Positions 1,866-54,942 of a DNA stretch of 64,000 nucleotides are shown piece after piece. The position numbers were made by a program, and so were the translations under genes. The stretch is from a virus. The first letter of the stretch is position 1; every line of letters begins with the position of its first letter. The notes beneath the pieces are model-generated. The model was not told the DNA's origin, made no database searches, and was given only the letters and a program-made list of their open reading frames with translations. The stretch covers positions 1 to 64,000 of the IMG/VR virus record IMGVR_UViG_3300024265_000039; one strand, 5' to 3'.

Positions 1866-3945
1866 AATATTGAAAGAACGCGGTATCGACCGGGCAGCCC
1901 ATGCCGCCCATTGGGAGATAGTTCCCGGCGGTTGGGAATATCCCGTTTACGATTGTCGTGAAGCGGATGAAATTGTGGTCCATCGCTTCAAGGCCCACAA
2001 CCATGGCAAGGGCGCAAAATACCAATGGCGACCGGAAAAGCCTGAATTGGGCTATACGCTGTACTACATGCTCCCAGGAACATTGGAGGCCATCGCCAGC
2101 GCAGGGGGGCTAGCATTTTTGGCTTCCGGCGAGCCGGATGTGCTCGCCTATCGTGCCGCCGGGTATGCCAATGTCCTGTGCTGGTTCGATGGCGAAAAAT
2201 CCGTCCCGGAATCTCTGCCCGACGATTTGCATGATTTCGGGGTGACCCGGTTGATTTATTTCCCTGACAACGATCAAACTGGCCGGGAAGCTACAACCAA
2301 AATTGCCGCGATCCTTGATGAAAGCGGGATTGAATTTGCGCCATACGACATCGGCGGTGATGAGAAGAATGACATCAATGCTGTCTGGATGGAATGCGAG
2401 TTTGACCAGGAGCGGTTCACTGAACAGCTAAAATCCTGCCCCCGCCTAGCTTTCCAAACACCAGCAGAGCCTACCCCGGCGCAGCAACCACTGCGGAAAT
2501 CTCCCCCCAGGAAATCATCTGAACAACCAAATACGTCAGGCATGTCGCCTAAGCAACAGGCCTGGGAAAATTATCTGGAAGAAGTCAAACAACATGTCCC
2601 CCAAGGCGACAGGAAAGGACGGTTCAATTGCCTCAATCCGTCTCACGATGACAGGAACCCAAGTGCTAGAGTTTCCTATGAGAAAAGCAATGAGGGGATT
2701 TATATCTGCCATTGTGGTAACAACTCCAGTTGGGGTTGGCCCGATGTCGGTAGCTGGCTGGGATTGCATTGGGAAAGCTATCGGGATGATTATGTTAAAG
2801 AGGTTGACAGGGAGGGAGTTGAAGATCGTCGTCAACAACAGTTGCGCGACTGGGCCGAGCGTCCATTGGAGACAGCCCCCCATATCGCCGAAGCACTCTC
2901 ATTCTCCGGGTATGGGGTAAAATGGGATGATATTCCTATCGAACGGCTTCTGTTTTCCTCTGACGACGCCGCCGCGCTTTACGCTATGAGGAAACGTGGC
3001 GCATATAAATCTTCAGAGTCCCCCGTTCCATTCCCGTTCTCAGCCTTCCACCATCTGGGGGGGGTGTTCGAGGTCGGATCAGTGGGAGATTCCTACGGGT
3101 TTCTGGGGTTATCGGGGATGGGTAAAACCTCATTCCTGGAAGCTATCATAGATACCGCCCGGCAATACGGATTCAACTGCCTGCTATTGTCACCAGAAAT
3201 CCCCTGGTGGAAATTGGCCGACCGGCAAGTACAACGGTGGGGGGGGGCAACGGTCACCCAGTCATTATTGGACGATCTGGCTTTCCAGGAAGAGCGACAG
3301 CCATTGAATGGGGGGCGACACTTTGGCCGTCACCTAACCGAAGATCAACTTGACCAGGGCCTACGGCAGTTGGACTGGGCCGGGCGATGGCCGGGGAAAC
3401 TGTGGGCATTGGATTACTTTGGGGCTGATGCCATCCAATTCCTGGCGGCAACCTACAAAGCCATCCACTTTCTACGCACTGTGATGCAGCAGCGCATCCA
3501 GTATCTGGTGATTGATTATCTACAATTATTGACACCCCCTCCAAGCTGGCGAGGGAAGATGACGCTCGAAGATATTATGCTCCGCATCCGGGCACTGGCG
3601 CACAACATGGGCTGTATACCCATTGCCACTTCGCAAGTACGGAAAACCGATGCTTCTATAGCGATGACAGGAAAATCCATCGGTCAGGACGCCGGGATGA
3701 ATTTGCGCCCTTTCCAGTTCAAGGGGTTCGGCACCATGCGTCCAGGGTTGGAAGTTATGCCAAATGGAAAAAAAGGCAAGGCAGATTATGTGGTGTTCAA
3801 CATCACCAAAAACAGCGAAGGCCGGACATCTAAATCTATCGAAGTGCAAGTTGACTGGCCCAAGATGCTGTTTGTGGATCATGTGCGCGGGGGACAGCGT
3901 GCCAACATTGAGTCTGTTCCGTCGTTACCGGAAGATGATGATTAG
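1855..3945 (+). CDS. Primase-helicase fusion (TOPRIM, Zn finger, DnaB-like SF4 helicase)
   Basis: SGEPDVLA and FPDNDQTG (TOPRIM); CLNPSHDDRNPS..CHCG (CHC2-like); GLSGMGKTS, LVIDYLQLL and TSQVRK (helicase). Confidence 0.85.
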   Translation: MLHEILKERGIDRAAHAAHWEIVPGGWEYPVYDCREADEIVVHRFKAHNHGKGAKYQWRPEKPELGYTLYYMLPGTLEAIASAGGLAFLASGEPDVLAYRAAGYANVLCWFDGEKSVPESLPDDLHDFGVTRLIYFPDNDQTGREATTKIAAILDESGIEFAPYDIGGDEKNDINAVWMECEFDQERFTEQLKSCPRLAFQTPAEPTPAQQPLRKSPPRKSSEQPNTSGMSPKQQAWENYLEEVKQHVPQGDRKGRFNCLNPSHDDRNPSARVSYEKSNEGIYICHCGNNSSWGWPDVGSWLGLHWESYRDDYVKEVDREGVEDRRQQQLRDWAERPLETAPHIAEALSFSGYGVKWDDIPIERLLFSSDDAAALYAMRKRGAYKSSESPVPFPFSAFHHLGGVFEVGSVGDSYGFLGLSGMGKTSFLEAIIDTARQYGFNCLLLSPEIPWWKLADRQVQRWGGATVTQSLLDDLAFQEERQPLNGGRHFGRHLTEDQLDQGLRQLDWAGRWPGKLWALDYFGADAIQFLAATYKAIHFLRTVMQQRIQYLVIDYLQLLTPPPSWRGKMTLEDIMLRIRALAHNMGCIPIATSQVRKTDASIAMTGKSIGQDAGMNLRPFQFKGFGTMRPGLEVMPNGKKGKADYVVFNITKNSEGRTSKSIEVQVDWPKMLFVDHVRGGQRANIESVPSLPEDDD

Positions 3946-36366: not shown

Positions 36367-36936
36367 ATGGCAATCAAAACGATTAACCCGGCAGTAAAGA
36401 AAATGAAGCAGGCACGAGAACTCATCCAGGCGAAGGAATATGTAGCTGCTCGGAAAATTCTCCTGACTATGGATCACCCGCAGGCCCAGAAATGGCTGGC
36501 GAAATTAGATGACCTCTCCCCGATGGAGACTGACGCCCTACCCCAACCAGTTCCCTGGTGGCTGAATCCCTGGTTGCGGTTCGGCCTGGGGGTCGTAGCT
36601 GCTTTGTTCCTCGGCTTCGTTCTGGGAATGTCTTTTGGCGAACAGAATGCTCCCGGATACTTCTGCCAGGTCGATGAAGATTGGCTCGATATTCAGGGGC
36701 AGATCAGAAGTGATTACATCAACAGCATGAACACTTCTCTGGGCTACGCCTACGTGGTAGAGTATATTGAATATACCCCTGCCCCGGATGCCTGCGAATT
36801 GGAATGGAGCATCTGGGAATACGTTAGTGAGGGGATGATTGAGGTTGAATCTGGCAATCGGGAAATGGGGTACTTGTATATAGGAGAAGGGCTTGGTATG
36901 GCATATGCTTACCTTTTGACTACGGAGGAGAATTAA
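36367..36936 (+). CDS. Moron membrane protein
   Basis: Opposite strand, AAGGAG RBS, one TM segment; N-terminal ARELIQAKEYVAARKILLTMDHPQAQKWLAKLD motif that I recall from Chloroflexota proteins (unverified). Confidence 0.7.
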   Translation: MAIKTINPAVKKMKQARELIQAKEYVAARKILLTMDHPQAQKWLAKLDDLSPMETDALPQPVPWWLNPWLRFGLGVVAALFLGFVLGMSFGEQNAPGYFCQVDEDWLDIQGQIRSDYINSMNTSLGYAYVVEYIEYTPAPDACELEWSIWEYVSEGMIEVESGNREMGYLYIGEGLGMAYAYLLTTEEN

Positions 36937-37718
36937 TCGCCCTGCCCCACAATCTTTTCCCAGTCGGCCAGCAACTCAGTTCCATCCAGGGCGGCATAGC
37001 GCGTGCCTTCGCGCCGTTCGGTGCGATCCCCAAGGGACAATGCCTTTAATCCTCGAAAGAATTCGTCTTCGTCTTTGAAAGATACATAGATCATAAAATC
37101 TGCCCCACCCCCATCAAAGTCGTCGGAGGTGTCGTCAACGGTCTTTTTGTCTTCGAACGCGCCAGTGTAGTCTCCGTCACGCTTCATTTGCTCAATAGCA
37201 TCATTGAGCAAATCATCATCAAATCCGGTCGCTTCGTAGATCGTCAAATCGCATCCACGTAAGGCTTCCAGCAATGGGATAAGGGCATTGGGGTTATCTC
37301 GCCCCCGGCGGCCTGTTTGATTCTCGGCCAATGCATATCCAATCGCTTCTTCTCGCGTGTCCAGGTGGGAAATATCGCAGACAGATACCTGCCATATGCC
37401 CTCATCGACTCGCAACCGTTTACTTTTCTTGATCGCAGTATCGATGCGTTCCCGGTCTTCCCCTCTATTATGCATTGCTCGTATAACCAGTAACGCCTTT
37501 TTACGATGGTTCCCGGCCATTATTTCACCGGCCCAGACATTCAGTTCGTCCTGGAACCCAAACCTCAAAATTGAGGTGATGATTCCTCCGATATCTCCTT
37601 CGTTTGGATTGTCCTCCCACACTTCCAGGTCGTCGATGTTACGCCAGTCTAGTTCAGTCGGTTCAGCAGCCATGCTATGCCTCTTTCTCGTTTTGTCGTT
37701 CCCAGGCATCAATGTCAT
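36933..37718 (-). CDS. ParB/Srx-like N-terminal domain protein
   Basis: IDDLEVWEDNPN..SILRFGF..IMAGNHRKKAL..YALAEN..TGFDDD. Confidence 0.8.
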   Translation of the reverse strand: MTLMPGNDKTRKRHSMAAEPTELDWRNIDDLEVWEDNPNEGDIGGIITSILRFGFQDELNVWAGEIMAGNHRKKALLVIRAMHNRGEDRERIDTAIKKSKRLRVDEGIWQVSVCDISHLDTREEAIGYALAENQTGRRGRDNPNALIPLLEALRGCDLTIYEATGFDDDLLNDAIEQMKRDGDYTGAFEDKKTVDDTSDDFDGGGADFMIYVSFKDEDEFFRGLKALSLGDRTERREGTRYAALDGTELLADWEKIVGQGD

Positions 37719-43211: not shown

Positions 43212-43984
43212 TCATCTGCTATTGTCCCGGTGTGTCCACTCATACAGTTCCTGCATCAGCATTAGATCGGATACCCACTTGGGATCATGTGCTACAGCTT
43301 CGTCGTAGGTAGGGATACGAGAATACTTGCTGGCACGATATAGCTGCCAGCCTCGTTGCACTACGCTTACGGGGTGATCGAATCTCCAATCATCCCCAAC
43401 CCCATACGTCTCTCTCGCGGTTCCCGCATCTTGAAGCCAGCCGACCAAGTTTACTCGGACTTGCTTGCGGCGTTCCCTGAGAAAGGGTCTGCCGCCTCTT
43501 CCGGGGTTAGCTCGGCCTCCAATTTCCATTCTGGGGGAGGCGTCCATACCACCAGGGCTTCATACAGAGCTTGTCGCCACCCTGCTACCCCATCGGGAAG
43601 GCTGCGGCTGGCTGTACGCCCGTAAAGGATGTGGTTGCCGATGCGTTCTTTGAAGAATGCAAAACATTCTTCCGGGGTGCGCATTCCAATGACCATATTC
43701 CACAGTTGCTCCAGCCCCTGAATATCATCCGGGGTATCTTCGTGCCAGTCGAATATGAGCGATTGCGTGAGGGTAATGCAGTCTGCATATAATTCGATGT
43801 AGACTCGTCTGCCTTGGTCATCCGTAGAAATAGAATCCACGCCTTCATATTCGCAGAGTCGGCGTGCCAGCGCCTGGGATTGCAGATCGGTGTCATAGGT
43901 ACGGTAAGCGGCAAATTCGCCGGTAACCATCCCGTGCAGGAAGGCGACGCTGTTAGTTCGGCTTGGCTTTCGTTGTAGTGGCAT
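43212..43984 (-). CDS. Tail assembly chaperones G/GT with a programmed -1 frameshift
   Basis: G = 43451..43984; slippery C CCT TTC at 43487-43481 leads into frame PFLRERRKQ.. ending at 43212. Confidence 0.8.
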
Positions 43985-52348: not shown

Positions 52349-52398
52349 TTGTCATACCGTTGCAATTGTGGCATAATAGAGAAGCAGTAAACGCAAGG
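52349..52398 (+). promoter_or_regulatory. Promoter TTGTCA-N17-CATAAT; its 32-bp -10/+1 region is repeated at 53379-53410
   Basis: TGTGGCATAATAGAGAAGCAGTAAACGCAAGG is an exact repeat. Confidence 0.7.
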
Positions 52399-52423
52399 TG
52401 AACGAATATTATAAAGGTAGGGC

Positions 52424-52603
52424 ATGATGATGTACCAAAAAGCCGAAATTGATGATTTGAGAGAACGGGTGGAGTTCTTAGAGCGGCGAGCCAACGACAC
52501 CCAAAAACATATAGAAGGGCTGATGTCGTTGATTGATAAACTTAAACACAATCAGCAACAGGTGGTAAGCGGTATTCAAAAGGAGTTGGAAAGAAGAGGA
52601 TGA
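52424..52603 (+). CDS. 59-aa coiled-coil protein (below the ORF-track cutoff)
   Basis: MMMYQKAEIDDLRERVEFLERR...; AAGG RBS. Confidence 0.55.
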   Translation: MMMYQKAEIDDLRERVEFLERRANDTQKHIEGLMSLIDKLKHNQQQVVSGIQKELERRG

Positions 52604-52607
52604 TGGG

Positions 52608-52853
52608 ATGAGCAGAATAATGAAAGATGTAATTCATTTGACTATCGAATATATTCACCCTGGGCGCTTTGATGAAGATACTATCCCCAGTGCTATGGAT
52701 GTCATACGCTCTCGATTTCCAAGTTCTCTGCGGATTGATTTTGACAAAACCGAGCGACGTGGACATTCAATGGTCGTAATTGCAATTGTGTGGATTGATG
52801 ACCCAGATAATTGCGACTCAGAGATAGCGGAATCAAAAGGCGTAAGACGATGA
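52608..52853 (+). CDS. Hypothetical protein
   Basis: ATGA overlap with the next gene. Confidence 0.55.
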   Translation: MSRIMKDVIHLTIEYIHPGRFDEDTIPSAMDVIRSRFPSSLRIDFDKTERRGHSMVVIAIVWIDDPDNCDSEIAESKGVRR

Positions 52854-53464
52854 GAAGACATTGGCAATACTTCAAATACATCATGCGCCATAAGTGGTTT
52901 GTGTTGCTGGAATGTTGGCTGGACGGGTTATATTGGCGCGGTATCGTTCACGATTTGAGCAAGTTCTCCCCCTCTGAGTGGAGAGAATATGTATGGAGAT
53001 TTGCCTACAAAAATGTAGACCCCCGCCATATCCATGATAAAGAATATTTGATGGCCTTCAATCATCATTTGAATAAGAACGATCACCATTGGCAACATTG
53101 GTGCTATGTCCGGGATAGTGGTGAAATCAAATACTTGCCAATGCCTGATAAAGCGCGACGTGAAATGCTGGCCGATTGGCGTGGCATGGGGCGGGCGTTG
53201 GGCAAACCGGATACACGCGGTTGGTATCTTGCGAATAGCGAAAATATCCACTTGCATCCTGATACCCGGAAATGGGTCGATTTTCAATTGAAGGTTTGTA
53301 TCTGTGGAGATATGACCTTCAAAGGCTATCATCTTTGCCATGCCTGCTTATTGGGCGAAAGCGCAAGCCGAAAGATAATGTGGCATAATAGAGAAGCAGT
53401 AAACGCAAGGAAGCGCACCCCCCAAGAGGAATGCGCTTCAGATTTCAGTCAGAAAGACCTATGA
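52850..53464 (+). CDS. HD-like phosphohydrolase (DUF5662-like)
   Basis: RHKWFV, HDLSKFSPSEW, HHLNKNDHHWQHW, EMLADW. Confidence 0.8.
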   Translation: MRRHWQYFKYIMRHKWFVLLECWLDGLYWRGIVHDLSKFSPSEWREYVWRFAYKNVDPRHIHDKEYLMAFNHHLNKNDHHWQHWCYVRDSGEIKYLPMPDKARREMLADWRGMGRALGKPDTRGWYLANSENIHLHPDTRKWVDFQLKVCICGDMTFKGYHLCHACLLGESASRKIMWHNREAVNARKRTPQEECASDFSQKDL

Positions 53465-53476
53465 GGAGATTATACC

Positions 53477-54391
53477 ATGCAAATGCAAAATGCGACACTG
53501 TACCGCCTATCAGAAAGTGACAGATTGGAAGCCCGTGCCCAGACGCGGGATAACCTGCTGAAAGGGATGGGGGGGGAACCGCAATGGCAACAATACAAAC
53601 GTGCCGTTGTCCAGGAGTTCCCCGGTTGGCTTCAACTGATCGTGGCCGGACTAGCAACACTGGCTCTGGCAGCCGCCTTCTACATCTCCGCGATGAACTT
53701 GAATACGATTGGGATAGATACGGTCAGCAAAACCCACGACAAAGGTGTTGCTACAGCCGGGATCGCCGTAGTGCTGCTGGCGGAATCGGCCCAGGTGATC
53801 TTCAGCCTTGCGCTGGCAGTCATCGCTAAAAGCCGTTCCAGTCGCGGCATTCTCTTTTCCGGGATGGCCGCCGCTACCGCTATCGCCCTGACCGGCAATA
53901 TTCAGCTAGCATCGCCAGATACCGCCTTCGACTGGCTCCTGGCTATTCTCCCGCCGATGATCGTTCTGGGAGTAGCCTACATCCTCAAAGAACAAATTCT
54001 CAATACGGTGCGCACGCGCCACGCGAACCGGCTGGCATTTCAGGATGCCCAAGACAAATGGGATCAAACGCACCAACACCCGGAAGAGCATCCTGGCTGG
54101 AGGGTGGCTTACGCTACCGCGCTCAAAGAACAACTGATGAAAGTGAATGGCCGGGGGCGAGGAAGAGCCGAGCGGGAACAGGCCATGTCCCAGATGGGAC
54201 GGAGCGAATGGAGCACCCTTGTCCACCAGGAACTTACCAACGATCAGTGGTACATCGACCCGGCATTCCCAGCACCTTCAGCGGGGATGGTTGACGTAGC
54301 GGCCAGTCTCAAAAAGTCAGAAGCGCTTGTCGTCGAAAGCGGTGAGCCTTTTTTAGCCCACAACCCCAACGGGAACAGCCAGAACCGGTAG
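53477..54391 (+). CDS. Four-TM membrane protein; -1 frameshift extension to 54552 adds a zinc finger
   Basis: Four hydrophobic segments, GAGGAG RBS, T TTT TTA at 54349-54355. Confidence 0.75.
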   Translation: MQMQNATLYRLSESDRLEARAQTRDNLLKGMGGEPQWQQYKRAVVQEFPGWLQLIVAGLATLALAAAFYISAMNLNTIGIDTVSKTHDKGVATAGIAVVLLAESAQVIFSLALAVIAKSRSSRGILFSGMAAATAIALTGNIQLASPDTAFDWLLAILPPMIVLGVAYILKEQILNTVRTRHANRLAFQDAQDKWDQTHQHPEEHPGWRVAYATALKEQLMKVNGRGRGRAEREQAMSQMGRSEWSTLVHQELTNDQWYIDPAFPAPSAGMVDVAASLKKSEALVVESGEPFLAHNPNGNSQNR

Positions 54392-54666
54392 AGGACGAAG
54401 GTCGTCCGACAGGTAAGGGGAACCCGGTAAAACGGCGGCGCTGCCTCGCTTGCGACCGCCCCTTCCGCACGCGGAACAGCAGGAGATTGTACTGCTCCAC
54501 AGCCTGCAAGCAGAAATACTATCGTGAGGGCGATTCGTTACGGACAGTGTGAACGTTTGGGTTAGGTTTGCGAGTGTGTGCGGTGTGTACTGCTTGAGGT
54601 ATCTGAACCCAGGCAGAACTTGGAAGTAGGATGCCTCCGAGAGTGCTGTAATGGCGCTCTCTTTGA

Positions 54667-54942
54667 TTACAGTGGTCGCATGATTGCTTCACGGCATTGA
54701 GTATCCGGCGGGGGCACGTCCAACCCGTCATCCAGCAACGCCTGTATGAACTCTGGGAGCAGGGTTGCCAGCAAGTTTTGTGCTTCCGACAGGGTAGTTC
54801 CCTGGGCATGACAGCCCGGCAACTCCGGGTGCAATGCGATCCAGCAAACTTCTCCGCCAGCCGTATCTTGCAGGATGTGGACTTGGTACGGGCGGAGAGA
54901 CAGCCGGTACGCTTCCAATGATACTTGGTTCGTGTCAGTCAT
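54667..54942 (-). CDS. HicB-family antitoxin-like protein (solo)
   Basis: WIALHPELPGCHAQGTTLSEAQ..LLDDGLDVPPP. Confidence 0.85.
   Translation of the reverse strand: MTDTNQVSLEAYRLSLRPYQVHILQDTAGGEVCWIALHPELPGCHAQGTTLSEAQNLLATLLPEFIQALLDDGLDVPPPDTQCREAIMRPL

Follow-up and report, generated by a model that had tools for sequence, protein, structure and literature searches.

A programmed −1 ribosomal frameshift at the slippery heptamer T_TTT_TTA (54349–54355, + strand) is the likely means by which the phage studied here adds a zinc-ribbon tail to a membrane protein. All positions refer to the window, i.e. the whole stretch of 64,000 nucleotides analysed. As judged from sequence comparison, programmed −1 frameshifting is well supported for the family of this protein (P0002) and probable for the phage of the window itself.

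In the proposed mechanism, most ribosomes would translate 53477..54391 up to the TAG stop and yield a 304-residue membrane protein with the usual family tail. A fraction would slip back by one base on T_TTT_TTA, with tRNA-Phe re-pairing from UUU to UUU and tRNA-Leu from UUA to UUU, and would then read the −1 frame to 54552. The resulting trans-frame product, predicted to comprise 293 + 65 = 358 residues, would share the membrane and helical body and continue into a linker rich in charged residues, a zinc ribbon with four cysteines and a basic tail. The recoding signal that the family retains at a conserved Pro-Leu would here take the form of T_TTT_TTA. We infer from the sequence that slippage takes place in this phage at some rate and that it serves to keep anchor-only and anchor-plus-ribbon subunits at a fixed ratio. 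A mixture of this kind could tie DNA or RNA of the element to the membrane.

Slippery site and reading frames

The zero-frame gene (53477..54391, + strand) was assigned from the open reading frame list, its homologs and hydropathy; it encodes the 304-aa membrane protein P0002 of an unnamed family, with a tail of the form xFL ... NGN. A simple hydropathy scan revealed strong hydrophobic segments at residues 48–74, 90–118 and 149–172 and a weaker fourth one, so that three of the four transmembrane segments claimed in the first-pass annotation stand out clearly and the four-segment topology is plausible rather than proven. Close to its 3' end the gene reads CCT (54347–54349), TTT (54350–54352) and TTA (54353–54355). 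The heptamer is thus in phase with the zero frame, with UUU in the P site and UUA in the A site, and this phase allows the tRNAs in both sites to re-pair in the −1 frame. The T run at 54349–54354 is a T6, and 11 sense codons separate the heptamer from the TAG stop (54389–54391), where the overlapping −1 codon is GTA.

In the −1 frame, a TGA (54343–54345) two codons 5' of the heptamer shuts the frame, so the ribbon tail is unreachable from farther upstream. The same TGA-before-heptamer layout is seen in the relatives L036, L040, L045, L060, L062, L063, L070 and L072. From 54346 the frame is open to a TGA at 54550–54552, i.e. for 68 codons, 65 of them after the heptamer. The extension itself (54355..54552, + strand; 65 codons and the TGA) encodes a Pro/Glu/Arg-rich linker, the zinc ribbon and a basic tail and has no start of its own: neither in the open reading frame list nor by direct reading was an ATG, GTG or TTG found 5' of the first Cys codon (54442), and the sole TTG of this frame lies inside the ribbon. 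The first-pass annotation had described the heptamer 11 codons ahead of the stop, the stop at 54343, the start-less −1 frame open for about 66 codons and its absence from the open reading frame track; direct reading bears out all of these points, and the translated peptide string is identical.

Zinc ribbon and protein family

The core of the ribbon (54442..54507, + strand), assigned by translation, a profile of relatives and BLASTP, consists of CxxC, 13 residues and YCSxxC, followed by KQK. In P0001 the ligands are C33-x2-C36 ... Y49-C50-S-T-A-C54-K-Q-K, in agreement with the motif CxxC ... CxxxC with [FY]CS. With the four cysteines and the YCS in place, the zinc finger proposed earlier was recovered by two comparisons: a profile built from the ribbons of 47 relatives ranks the window ribbon best of 2072 six-frame phage fragments (E 0.0014), and BLASTP against the in-frame ribbon of the homolog P0026 gives E 4e-5. 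Matches to named families are weak. zf-FCS (PF06467) remained below threshold (E 0.64; 10.3 bits vs a gathering value of 22.4), as did the best Pfam match, Ecl1 (23.8 bits vs 28.3). An HNH-endonuclease ribbon piece was matched among PHROGs with E 3.2e-5, and a PDB sequence search returned NrdR alone (E 0.3). Over the Pfam, PHROG and PDB sequence searches the ribbon thus weakly resembles those of NinG, HNH and NrdR proteins. It is basic (13 K+R in 41 residues), and both this composition and the weak resemblances suggest that it is probably nucleic-acid-binding.

P0002 has 422 homologs at E<=1e-3, and no Pfam or PHROG model matches it. Its zero-frame tail aligns with the NGNGH tail of relatives and is thus genuine coding sequence, which argues that the gene is not a broken in-frame fusion; NG[x] occurs within the last 25 residues in 79 of 149 homologs. 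Other subfamilies carry in-frame C-terminal tails of the CxxC...H...H/C or helix-turn-helix-like type, as detected by our own regular expressions, and in P0026 a ribbon of the same kind as that of the window is fused in frame. For ten long in-frame homologs Pfam returned helix-turn-helix or zinc-finger matches at sub-threshold level only, so that their DNA-binding nature rests on the regular-expression motifs. The earlier notion of a membrane anchor made with and without a nucleic-acid-binding tail, where binding is presumed from sequence features, therefore fits the wider family, with its in-frame tails and the P0026 fusion.

When used as query in a word-index protein search, P0002 retrieved nothing but itself (1 match among 8000 scored candidates), and blastn of 53400–54700 against GenBank phages gave no match. 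Scans of IMG/VR yielded 0 confirmed relatives from 13 (P0002), 56 (alignment A2) and 4 (P0005) pattern matches. Among 401 genomes sampled from the phylum of the genome G001, the only match to P0002 was G001 itself.

Conservation of the two-frame layout in relatives

Comparison at the DNA level was made with relatives of one subfamily that are 36–41% identical and originate from metagenomes and Chloroflexota genomes; relatives from Anaerolineae and Aggregatilineales inhabit activated sludge and microbial mats. The ribbon was called by a regular expression needing all four cysteines, so that the decayed ribbons of L069, L153, L158 and L172 are counted as "no ribbon", and heptamers were counted only inside the open −1 overlap. 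Of 80 metagenome loci, 67 include the full 3' end of the gene together with no less than 150 nt of downstream sequence; among these, the ribbon lies in the −1 frame of 59 (47 distinct). An in-frame X_XXY_YYZ heptamer lies in the open overlap in 45 of the 47 distinct loci, and 22 have no ATG, GTG or TTG before the first Cys. The 76 Chloroflexota genome loci include 65 distinct ones with a ribbon, which is in the −1 frame in 64; all 64 have a heptamer, and the start is absent in 38. The two sets share lineages, and 2 of 110 loci are identical over 240 nt. Taken together, 106 of 108 distinct loci with a −1 ribbon possess a slippery heptamer in the open overlap; a start codon ahead of the first Cys is absent from 59 of the 108. 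The homologs for which DNA was compared are thus not in-frame fusions devoid of a slippery site. They conserve both frames and a heptamer at or near the homologous position, with letters that differ from those of the window; the check on homologs suggested in the first-pass annotation thus came out in its favour. L100 is a separate case, with a zero-frame knuckle of the form CxxxC.

The heptamer of the relatives is mostly C_CCT_TTA/G. A sister clade of 18 loci without the Pro-Leu site has C_CCA_AAA at another place. When the window was aligned with 35 relatives, CCTTT(TTT)AGCC was placed against CCCTTTAGCC; by this alignment, the site of the window is homologous to the C_CCT_TTA Pro-Leu site of the relatives, plus one TTT codon. 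Its letters are unlike those of all 106 relatives. At the site the Pro codon is CCT in 36/36 sequences, compared to 14% of Pro codons in gene bodies, and the Leu codon is TTA in 32/36 and TTG in 4/36, compared to a background of 6% and 19%, respectively. The heptamer is thus built from rare codons. Codons that are not slippery are found in three further Pro-Leu pairs of the vicinity, and the base before the heptamer is C while the codon it belongs to encodes 11 different residues. These data show nucleotide-level (synonymous-site) selection on the slippery site in the relatives.

Alternative explanations

An ATG or GTG overlaps the TGA stop in 49 of the 108 relatives, and in these loci the ribbon may additionally, or alternatively, be produced as a small protein of its own. 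In relatives with a TGA stop, GTG or ATG stands where the window has GTA; the stop used and the presence of a start are linked. As a rival reading, the ribbon could by origin have been a separate small gene coupled via an xTGA start/stop overlap, of which the phage copy is a silent but intact remnant (stop changed to TAG, start to GTA), with the heptamer being merely Pro-Phe-Leu codons. The GTA at the very start/stop position fits such a history, and so does a GAGG about 7 nt upstream of the start in L021-type rows of the alignment, noted by eye and uncounted. With 10 copies of TTTTTTA in the window and 7.7 +/- 3.0 expected, the heptamer alone is not unusual; judged by the relatives, the excess over chance is in its context. 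The −1 tail scores −0.04 per codon, the best of the three frames, yet below 192/192 in-frame control windows; only 1.6% of off-frame windows reach this value.

In the window, the search revealed no stimulator. From the heptamer onwards, 122 nt showed no more stable folding than shuffled sequences (z 0.26), RNAalifold found no conserved pair on 36 aligned sites, and Rfam returned no family apart from a lone chance match (E 0.86). Upstream, a Shine–Dalgarno-like stretch (duplex <= −8 kcal/mol, 3–22 nt before the heptamer) is present in 55% of 44 loci compared to 3.6% of 3724 control positions; the match in the window amounts to −6.2 kcal/mol, which is the 19th percentile within the gene, and is both weak and located too near to the heptamer. 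Regarding the intrinsic tendency to shift in E. coli, C_CC.U_UU.A, C_CC.U_UU.G and C_CC.A_AA.A belong to 18 under-represented patterns that shift by >0.10% without stimulators, and U_UU.U_UU.A is missing from these 18 patterns of Sharma (PMC4066793). Likewise, U_UUU_UUA is described in PMC5009743 as much less shift-prone than A_AAA_AAG in E. coli.

Several features of the relatives are difficult to reconcile with a silent remnant. The 59 start-less loci retain the four cysteines, with the first Cys codon kept as TGC and as TGT, i.e. with synonymous change, and decayed ribbons are limited to the four loci named above. All 49 start-bearing loci keep the heptamer, which indicates that these loci cannot dispense with it. 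A tree of 101 relatives (7 of the 108 loci with an open frame under 230 aa were omitted) requires at least 14 gains or losses of the start codon, whereas the heptamer persisted and its type changed 4 times. Between the heptamer and the zero-frame stop of the window, the −1 frame contains no stop codon, an outcome reached by 17% of synonymous shuffles. We therefore consider a silent remnant unlikely and frameshifting the better explanation of the window.

Transcriptional slippage, in which the polymerase adds one U in the T6 and so joins the body and ribbon frames, would lead to nearly the same protein and could exploit the homopolymer of the window. The relatives, in contrast, have only T3 or A4 runs within classical X_XXY_YYZ heptamers, which fits tRNA re-pairing and not polymerase slippage, and bacterial polymerase slippage usually needs runs of about 8–9. 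This route is very improbable.

Equally improbable is independent translation of the ribbon, whether initiated at an unusual codon or through re-initiation downstream of the TAG. A GTA at 54427, which lies five codons ahead of the first Cys, is preceded at a distance of 6 nt by an AAGGGG, and several start-less relatives have a G-rich stretch before a GTG in a CxVC knuckle. GTA differs from AUG at two positions, however, and is not a known initiator; the knuckle of the window is C-L-A-C with no GTG, and initiation within the knuckle would lose the first, conserved Cys.

The T6 was checked at contig level. A Logan contig of run X1, the only run found with the stretch, spans 53477–54700 with 0 differences and 0 indels at a word depth of about 50; it reads T6, with no variant listed there, in agreement with the T6 on which the first-pass annotation relied. 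Since X1 may be the source sample, this contig represents a second assembly and not a second sample. No RNA run containing the stretch was listed. Records of 3 contigs include a protein identical to the 304-aa one. Although homopolymers are error-prone, P0026 is an in-frame fusion and the relative L168 looks like a one-base loss in an A run, a sequencing or assembly error or very recent mutation of a true T7 gene (a plain in-frame fusion) is extremely unlikely in view of the T6 in the second assembly, the three contigs, the conserved NGN tail that T7 would lose and the two-frame layout common to relatives from many samples.

Gene neighbourhood

P0002 is the last gene of a small + strand cassette (52424..52603, 52608..52853, 52811..53464 and 53477..54391) located between − strand virion genes. 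At the head of the cassette lies a promoter-like site (52349..52377, + strand; 10/12 matches, with TG), and 87 nt after the −1-frame stop a terminator-like hairpin (54639..54661, + strand) with a 10-pair stem and a T-rich tail; both are consensus matches only. With the hairpin 3' of the −1-frame stop, the predicted transcript would cover the whole ribbon frame. For a 253-aa neighbour, 0 of 2 matches were confirmed in the IMG/VR scan. The DUF5662 neighbour was found at 16 loci, none of which has a relative of P0002 or P0001 at E<=1e-3; hence, there is no synteny through the DUF5662 gene. The idea that a 226-aa gene downstream in relatives is a relaxase was dropped, as Pfam and PHROGs gave no match. 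Elsewhere in the phage, C_CCT_TTC at 43487–43481 is a candidate tail-chaperone frameshift site, for which no tie to a chaperone family was found.

Significance

Few well-supported programmed −1 frameshifts of bacteria and phages are known, and they belong to a small number of gene classes (dnaX, IS transposases, tail chaperones and few others). The present case extends this list by a large, unnamed family of membrane proteins from mobile elements, in which the signal is kept in >100 diverged loci, three different heptamers serve the same end, and the downstream start comes and goes while the signal stays. Protein databases lack the long form, since gene calling either overlooks the tail or reports it as a small, truncated gene. 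The relatives also offer a natural series for how heptamer identity and the upstream Shine–Dalgarno-like element set shift efficiency in non-model bacteria (Chloroflexota). In addition, the sequences point towards a membrane-anchored, probably nucleic-acid-binding protein that may act in replication or spread of the element.

As a tentative extension, which we consider possible but doubtful, the frameshift could be a defining ancient feature of the whole family, whose members are found in elements integrated into filamentous Chloroflexota and also in at least one phage. It would provide a fixed mix of anchor-only and anchor-plus-ribbon forms, plus free ribbon where a start exists, and the mixed complex would tether or move element DNA at the membrane. 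The slippery site would then have been re-invented at least three times, as C_CCU_UUA, C_CCA_AAA and U_UUU_UUA. Models for such tethering or moving of DNA at the membrane are the Spd spread proteins of Streptomyces plasmids and the membrane DNA anchors of phage phi29.

Comparison with known systems

Literature searches on frameshifting, zinc ribbons, bacteriophages and membrane proteins did not reveal the family among the matches listed (title or abstract start); the supplements of PMC3711429 and PMC4066793 list conserved frameshift clusters and could include it. A term search of PMC3711429 returned neither "zinc" nor CCCTTT. Literature on CCCUUUA frameshifting concerned Giardia virus and human mRNAs only, that on slippery frameshifting in Chloroflexota only prfB, and none was found that links DUF2637/SpdB2 with a frameshift.

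Similar to the DUF2637/SpdB proteins of actinomycete mobile elements, P0002 is predicted to have several N-terminal membrane helices followed by a long cytoplasmic part. Language-model and structure comparison in the ESM Atlas points in this direction (scores 0.80–0.82, TM 0.43) as a lead only, with no Pfam match to DUF2637 (PF10935) or SpdB_N for P0002 (E<=1) or for 46 family members (E<=0.01). The heptamer U_UUU_UUA is identical to that of HIV-1 gag-pol, as given in PMC5009743. The HIV-1 site, however, works on eukaryotic ribosomes with a downstream stem-loop.

The transposase pairs OrfA/OrfAB of the IS3/IS911 type also resemble the present arrangement: a 0/−1 frame pair of a mobile element is joined by a heptamer, the fusion is the functional long form, and the downstream frame is start-less in many members, according to PMC4066793. 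In contrast, the DNA-binding part of the IS proteins lies upstream, whereas the ribbon lies downstream; the proteins are unrelated, and the IS elements mainly use A_AAA_AAG or A_AAA_AAA, frequently in combination with a pseudoknot. For E. coli dnaX (tau/gamma), frameshifting has an upstream Shine–Dalgarno-like stimulator. The enrichment of such stretches 3–22 nt upstream in the relatives is reminiscent of this system, the heptamer of which is A_AAA_AAG (PMC5009743). Unlike the proposed shift in P0002, which lengthens the protein and has no downstream structure detected by our folding searches, the dnaX shift shortens its product and a downstream hairpin also acts; moreover, the window itself lacks a convincing Shine–Dalgarno-like element.

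In phage lambda, the −1 shift near the 3' end of g (tail assembly chaperone gpG/gpGT) is not known to need a strong RNA structure. P0002 differs from gpG in being a membrane protein of another family without PHROG match, in the zinc ribbon as added domain, and in its location in a small + strand cassette instead of between tail genes. An assignment as tail assembly chaperone G/GT, for which a chaperone family match and a place between the major tail and tape-measure genes would be expected, was rejected on this account, given the missing PHROG and Pfam matches and the − strand genes flanking the cassette. The architecture is nevertheless alike: as described for lambda in PMC5009743, a minority of ribosomes shift by −1 at an X_XXY_YYZ heptamer located few codons ahead of the stop, which adds a C-terminal domain and gives two proteins in a fixed ratio with a common N-terminal part, the added domain providing a different binding partner.

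Results and Discussion

The window covers the first 64 kb of an IMG/VR virus record that comprises 86,108 bases and is rated complete by CheckV; the sole sequencing run containing the stretch is labelled as a subsurface metagenome. On the plus strand an ORF was called at 53477..54391, the zero-frame gene of a 304-residue membrane protein (P0002) whose codons CCT TTT TTA occupy 54347-54355. They include a correctly phased X_XXY_YYZ slippery heptamer, T_TTT_TTA (54349-54355, +), followed in the zero frame by 11 sense codons and TAG. The -1 frame is closed by a TGA at 54343-54345 and open thereafter until the TGA at 54550-54552; according to the sequence read and the ORF list it holds no ATG, GTG or TTG 5' of the first Cys codon (54442). 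Its peptide shows the motif CxxC, 13 residues and YCSxxC-KQK. The first-pass annotation had described a zinc finger reachable only by -1 frameshifting, and its account of the heptamer, the 11 codons to the stop, the closed and then open -1 frame, the missing start and the Cys motif is accurate.

That annotation had named a seventh T, and with it a simple fused ORF, as the alternative. A Logan contig of run X1, an independent assembly with a word depth of about 50, covers 53477-54700 with 0 differences and 0 indels, and the identical 304-residue protein is recorded from three contigs. T6 therefore stands in a second assembly at contig level. Since run X1 may be the source sample, an assembler slip is excluded and a second sample is not supplied.

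With Pfam, all zinc-ribbon matches of the -1 peptide were sub-threshold (Ecl1, PLATZ, NinG, NrdR ribbon, zf-FCS); PHROGs returned the ribbon piece of an HNH endonuclease family (E 3.2e-5). Against a profile of 47 relatives' ribbons the peptide ranks first among 2072 six-frame phage fragments (E 0.0014), which identifies the tail as the same element in the same place as the ribbon of the relatives. Its codon score is the highest of the three frames there, a level reached by only 1.6% of off-frame windows; it nevertheless lies below all 192 in-frame control windows, which counts against the frameshift reading.

A word-index protein search with P0002 returned only P0002 itself. A full HMMER scan, which covered 1.84 billion representatives, gave 422 homologs with E<=1e-3, of which 303 reach <=1e-10; Pfam matched no family to P0002 or to 46 aligned members, and PHROG gave no match for P0002. 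The conserved part of about 260 residues consists of hydrophobic segments and a helical region closing with an ELxADxWY motif, and the C-termini beyond it differ. 'xFL ... NGNG(H)' is a frequent ending of the short forms, and NG[x] occurs within the final 25 residues in 79 of 149 homologs. In 33 of the 149 best homologs our regular expression recognized an in-frame CxxC...H...H/C finger that separates the conserved body from the NGH tail, and seven have a 'W...G.W.A.S' module; these are alternative C-terminal modules on one anchor, seen in P0011, P0022, P0025, P0035 and other homologs. Other homologs have helix-turn-helix-like tails with Pfam scores below threshold only, and P0026, encoded in a Porticoccus MAG, has a ribbon like that of the -1 peptide as an in-frame fusion. 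The nearest homologs (P0003-P0007, 39-48% identity) show 'xF[LTP]' at the site on the protein level. Because the zero-frame tail of P0002 aligns with the NGNG tail of the family, the unshifted product is a full-length, typical family member rather than what is left of a broken fusion.

DNA of relatives came from two scans. The metagenome scan gave 80 loci with 36-41% identity to P0002, and 67 of these, with a complete gene end and >=150 nt downstream, could be used for the ribbon count. The ribbon, with the consensus CxVCGxxLP...GGRxRxYCSNRCKQ, is present in the -1 frame at 59 of the 67 loci (47 distinct), where it either overlaps the gene stop or follows it closely. The ribbon is in the +1 frame with its own GTG in L027 and L030 and broken in L069, and the family gene itself is broken in L083, L084, L085, L093 and L094. 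All 76 loci of the genome scan come from Chloroflexota MAGs (Anaerolineae, Aggregatilineales, Phototrophicaceae), with one to three copies per genome; three with too little downstream sequence and one without a gene end were left out. Among 65 distinct genome loci with a ribbon, 64 have it in the -1 frame and one (L168) in +1. Six loci lack it by our pattern: one Cys is lost in L153 and L172, the ribbon is broken in L158 and absent in L161 and L170, and in L100 (~3390-3420) it follows the TGA stop directly in the zero frame with a CxxxC knuckle. L168 (~960-990) has one A too few in C_CCA_AAA, with the result that the gene stops at once. Each of the junctions in L168 and L100 is due to mutation or to misassembly. 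A point against the frameshift reading is that all relatives with DNA belong to a single subfamily (nine clusters at 80% identity, one group at 60%) from which the phage gene is distant (end branch 1.83 on the tree).

Pooling of both sets resulted in 108 distinct loci. Conservation in homologs of the heptamer and of both frames, the check put forward with the first-pass annotation, was borne out in 106 of these, which keep the two-frame ribbon layout with an in-phase heptamer inside the open -1 stretch: C_CCT_TTA (78), C_CCA_AAA (18), C_CCT_TTG (8), C_CCT_TTC (1) and C_CCT_TTT (1). In the exceptions, a -1 stop separates site and ribbon (L031), or Pro is changed to Ser and only a downstream C_CCA_AAC is left (L065). 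Conservation of the slippery site extends to the nucleotides. The main site encodes a conserved Pro-Leu, with CCT in 36/36 loci vs 14% of the Pro codons in the same genes, and TTA in 32/36 and TTG in 4/36 vs 6% and 19% of the Leu codons. The preceding codon ends in C across 11 different encoded residues, and three further Pro-Leu pairs of these tails read CCG CTC, CCA CTG and CCC CTC. A sister clade lacks this Pro-Leu and carries C_CCA_AAA at a different point of the tail, over Pro-Lys codons. When the window is aligned with 35 relatives, CCCTTTAGC forms the best conserved block; the window has CCTTTTTTAGCC there, the same site lengthened by a TTT codon. In several relatives, and likewise in the window, the -1 frame opens just two codons 5' of the heptamer. 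Under synonymous shuffling of the zero frame it stays open from heptamer to stop with a mean probability of 0.43 in the relatives and 0.17 in the window.

Between heptamer and stop (e.g. L036 3807-3864) zero-frame S-A-N-G-N-G and -1 Q-R-Q-R-E-R share bases. In relatives, AAC-to-AAT changes that are synonymous in the zero frame replace Arg by Trp in the -1 linker. This suggests a linker tolerant of change, with the NGNG tail as the constrained frame.

The ribbon could alternatively be translated from its own start. Forty-nine of the 108 loci have an ATG or GTG that shares bases with a TGA stop, two to four codons 5' of the first Cys; in L021-type rows GAGG stands ~7 nt upstream (seen by eye in the alignment, uncounted). 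At these 49 loci a free ribbon of ~50 residues may well be made by coupled initiation. The other 59 loci have no ATG, GTG or TTG between the upstream -1 stop and the first Cys; their zero-frame stop is mostly TAG, giving GTA as in the window. They retain the first Cys codon, as TGC or TGT, which argues that it is translated. On a FastTree phylogeny of 101 relatives and the window (final 45 residues omitted, seven of the 108 loci dropped for short frames), the start is gained or lost at least 14 times, and well-supported branches require six of these changes; the heptamer type changes four times. As the heptamer is retained in all 49 start-bearing loci, the start appears dispensable, unlike the slippery site, in our view the strongest argument for use of the site.

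The search for stimulators gave no downstream structure: the 122 nt in the window fold no better than shuffles (z 0.26), RNAalifold found no conserved pair in 36 aligned sites, and Rfam returned no family. Upstream, Shine-Dalgarno (SD)-like stretches were scored by the motif pairing with the 16S 3' end (<= -8 kcal/mol, 3-22 nt before the heptamer). They occur at 55% of 44 metagenome loci and in both heptamer clades, compared with a rate of 3.6% at 3724 control positions within these genes; the window value of -6.2 kcal/mol is unremarkable.

C_CC.U_UU.A, C_CC.U_UU.G and C_CC.A_AA.A belong to 18 heptamers that are listed as under-represented in E. coli genes and that shift >0.10% without stimulators (Sharma et al. 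2014, PMC4066793). U_UU.U_UU.A is absent from this list; it is named as the HIV site, with much less shifting in E. coli than A_AAA_AAG shows (Atkins et al. 2016, PMC5009743). On these grounds shift efficiency in the phage may be low.

In the ORF map the frameshift gene is the last of a four-ORF plus-strand cassette (52349-54661) amid minus-strand virion genes, together with ORFs of 59 aa, which is coiled-coil-like, and 81 aa and a DUF5662 protein (52811-53464, +, Pfam E 1.5e-37). A promoter-like site (52349-52377, +) stands at its head and a terminator-like hairpin (54639-54661, +) past the ribbon stop at its end, a moron-like layout. The DUF5662 protein has 16 relatives in IMG/VR contigs, and neither membrane protein nor ribbon was found in any of these loci, which marks this neighbour as an independent mobile module. 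In Chloroflexota (G001-G003; L046 1-6855, L053 1-6855) the gene pair is part of a conserved module and adjoins a helicase-like gene, ribbon-helix-helix repressors, a primase-polymerase and a conserved 226-aa ORF of no known family. This neighbourhood appears to be the replication or maintenance module of an integrated mobile element, multi-copy as judged from the one to three copies per genome, for which no published name was found.

The ESM Atlas cluster of P0002 is mainly Chloroflexota. The Atlas offered DUF2637/SpdB-like membrane proteins as a lead, and viral clusters with zf-C2H2 or HTH domains as structural neighbours; Pfam on P0002 and 46 members supported none of these. On our reading the protein would be anchored in the membrane and would bind nucleic acid through its variable C-terminal module; in this branch of the family frameshifting would add the module to a fraction of chains only.

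Elsewhere in the window, a C_CCT_TTC heptamer (43481-43487, -), of the same CCT-TTY slippery type as in the membrane-protein family, lies in phase within a 177-aa ORF (43984..43451, -), 10 codons from its stop, and a 111-aa ORF (43547..43212, -) follows in the -1 frame. The layout resembles a tail-chaperone G/GT pair, and neither ORF has a PHROG match. A 91-aa ORF convergent with the cassette (54667-54942, -) is HicB/UPF0150 antitoxin-like below threshold (Pfam E 8e-5, PHROG E 2.6e-4), and a 261-aa ORF (36933-37718, -) matches ParB-like partition protein and DNA methyltransferase PHROGs (E 4e-15).

Conclusion

We consider it highly probable that -1 frameshifting operates in the family and, with somewhat less assurance, likely that it does so at the site of this phage. 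The mechanism would be classical tandem slippage. The article texts searched hold no earlier case of this gene family or of the ribbon domain with -1 frameshifting; as far as these searches show, both are new to tandem-slippage frameshifting. Among known systems, lambda gpG/gpGT is closest in logic, dnaX in the upstream SD-like element, which is enriched in the relatives, and the IS3 family in gene layout.
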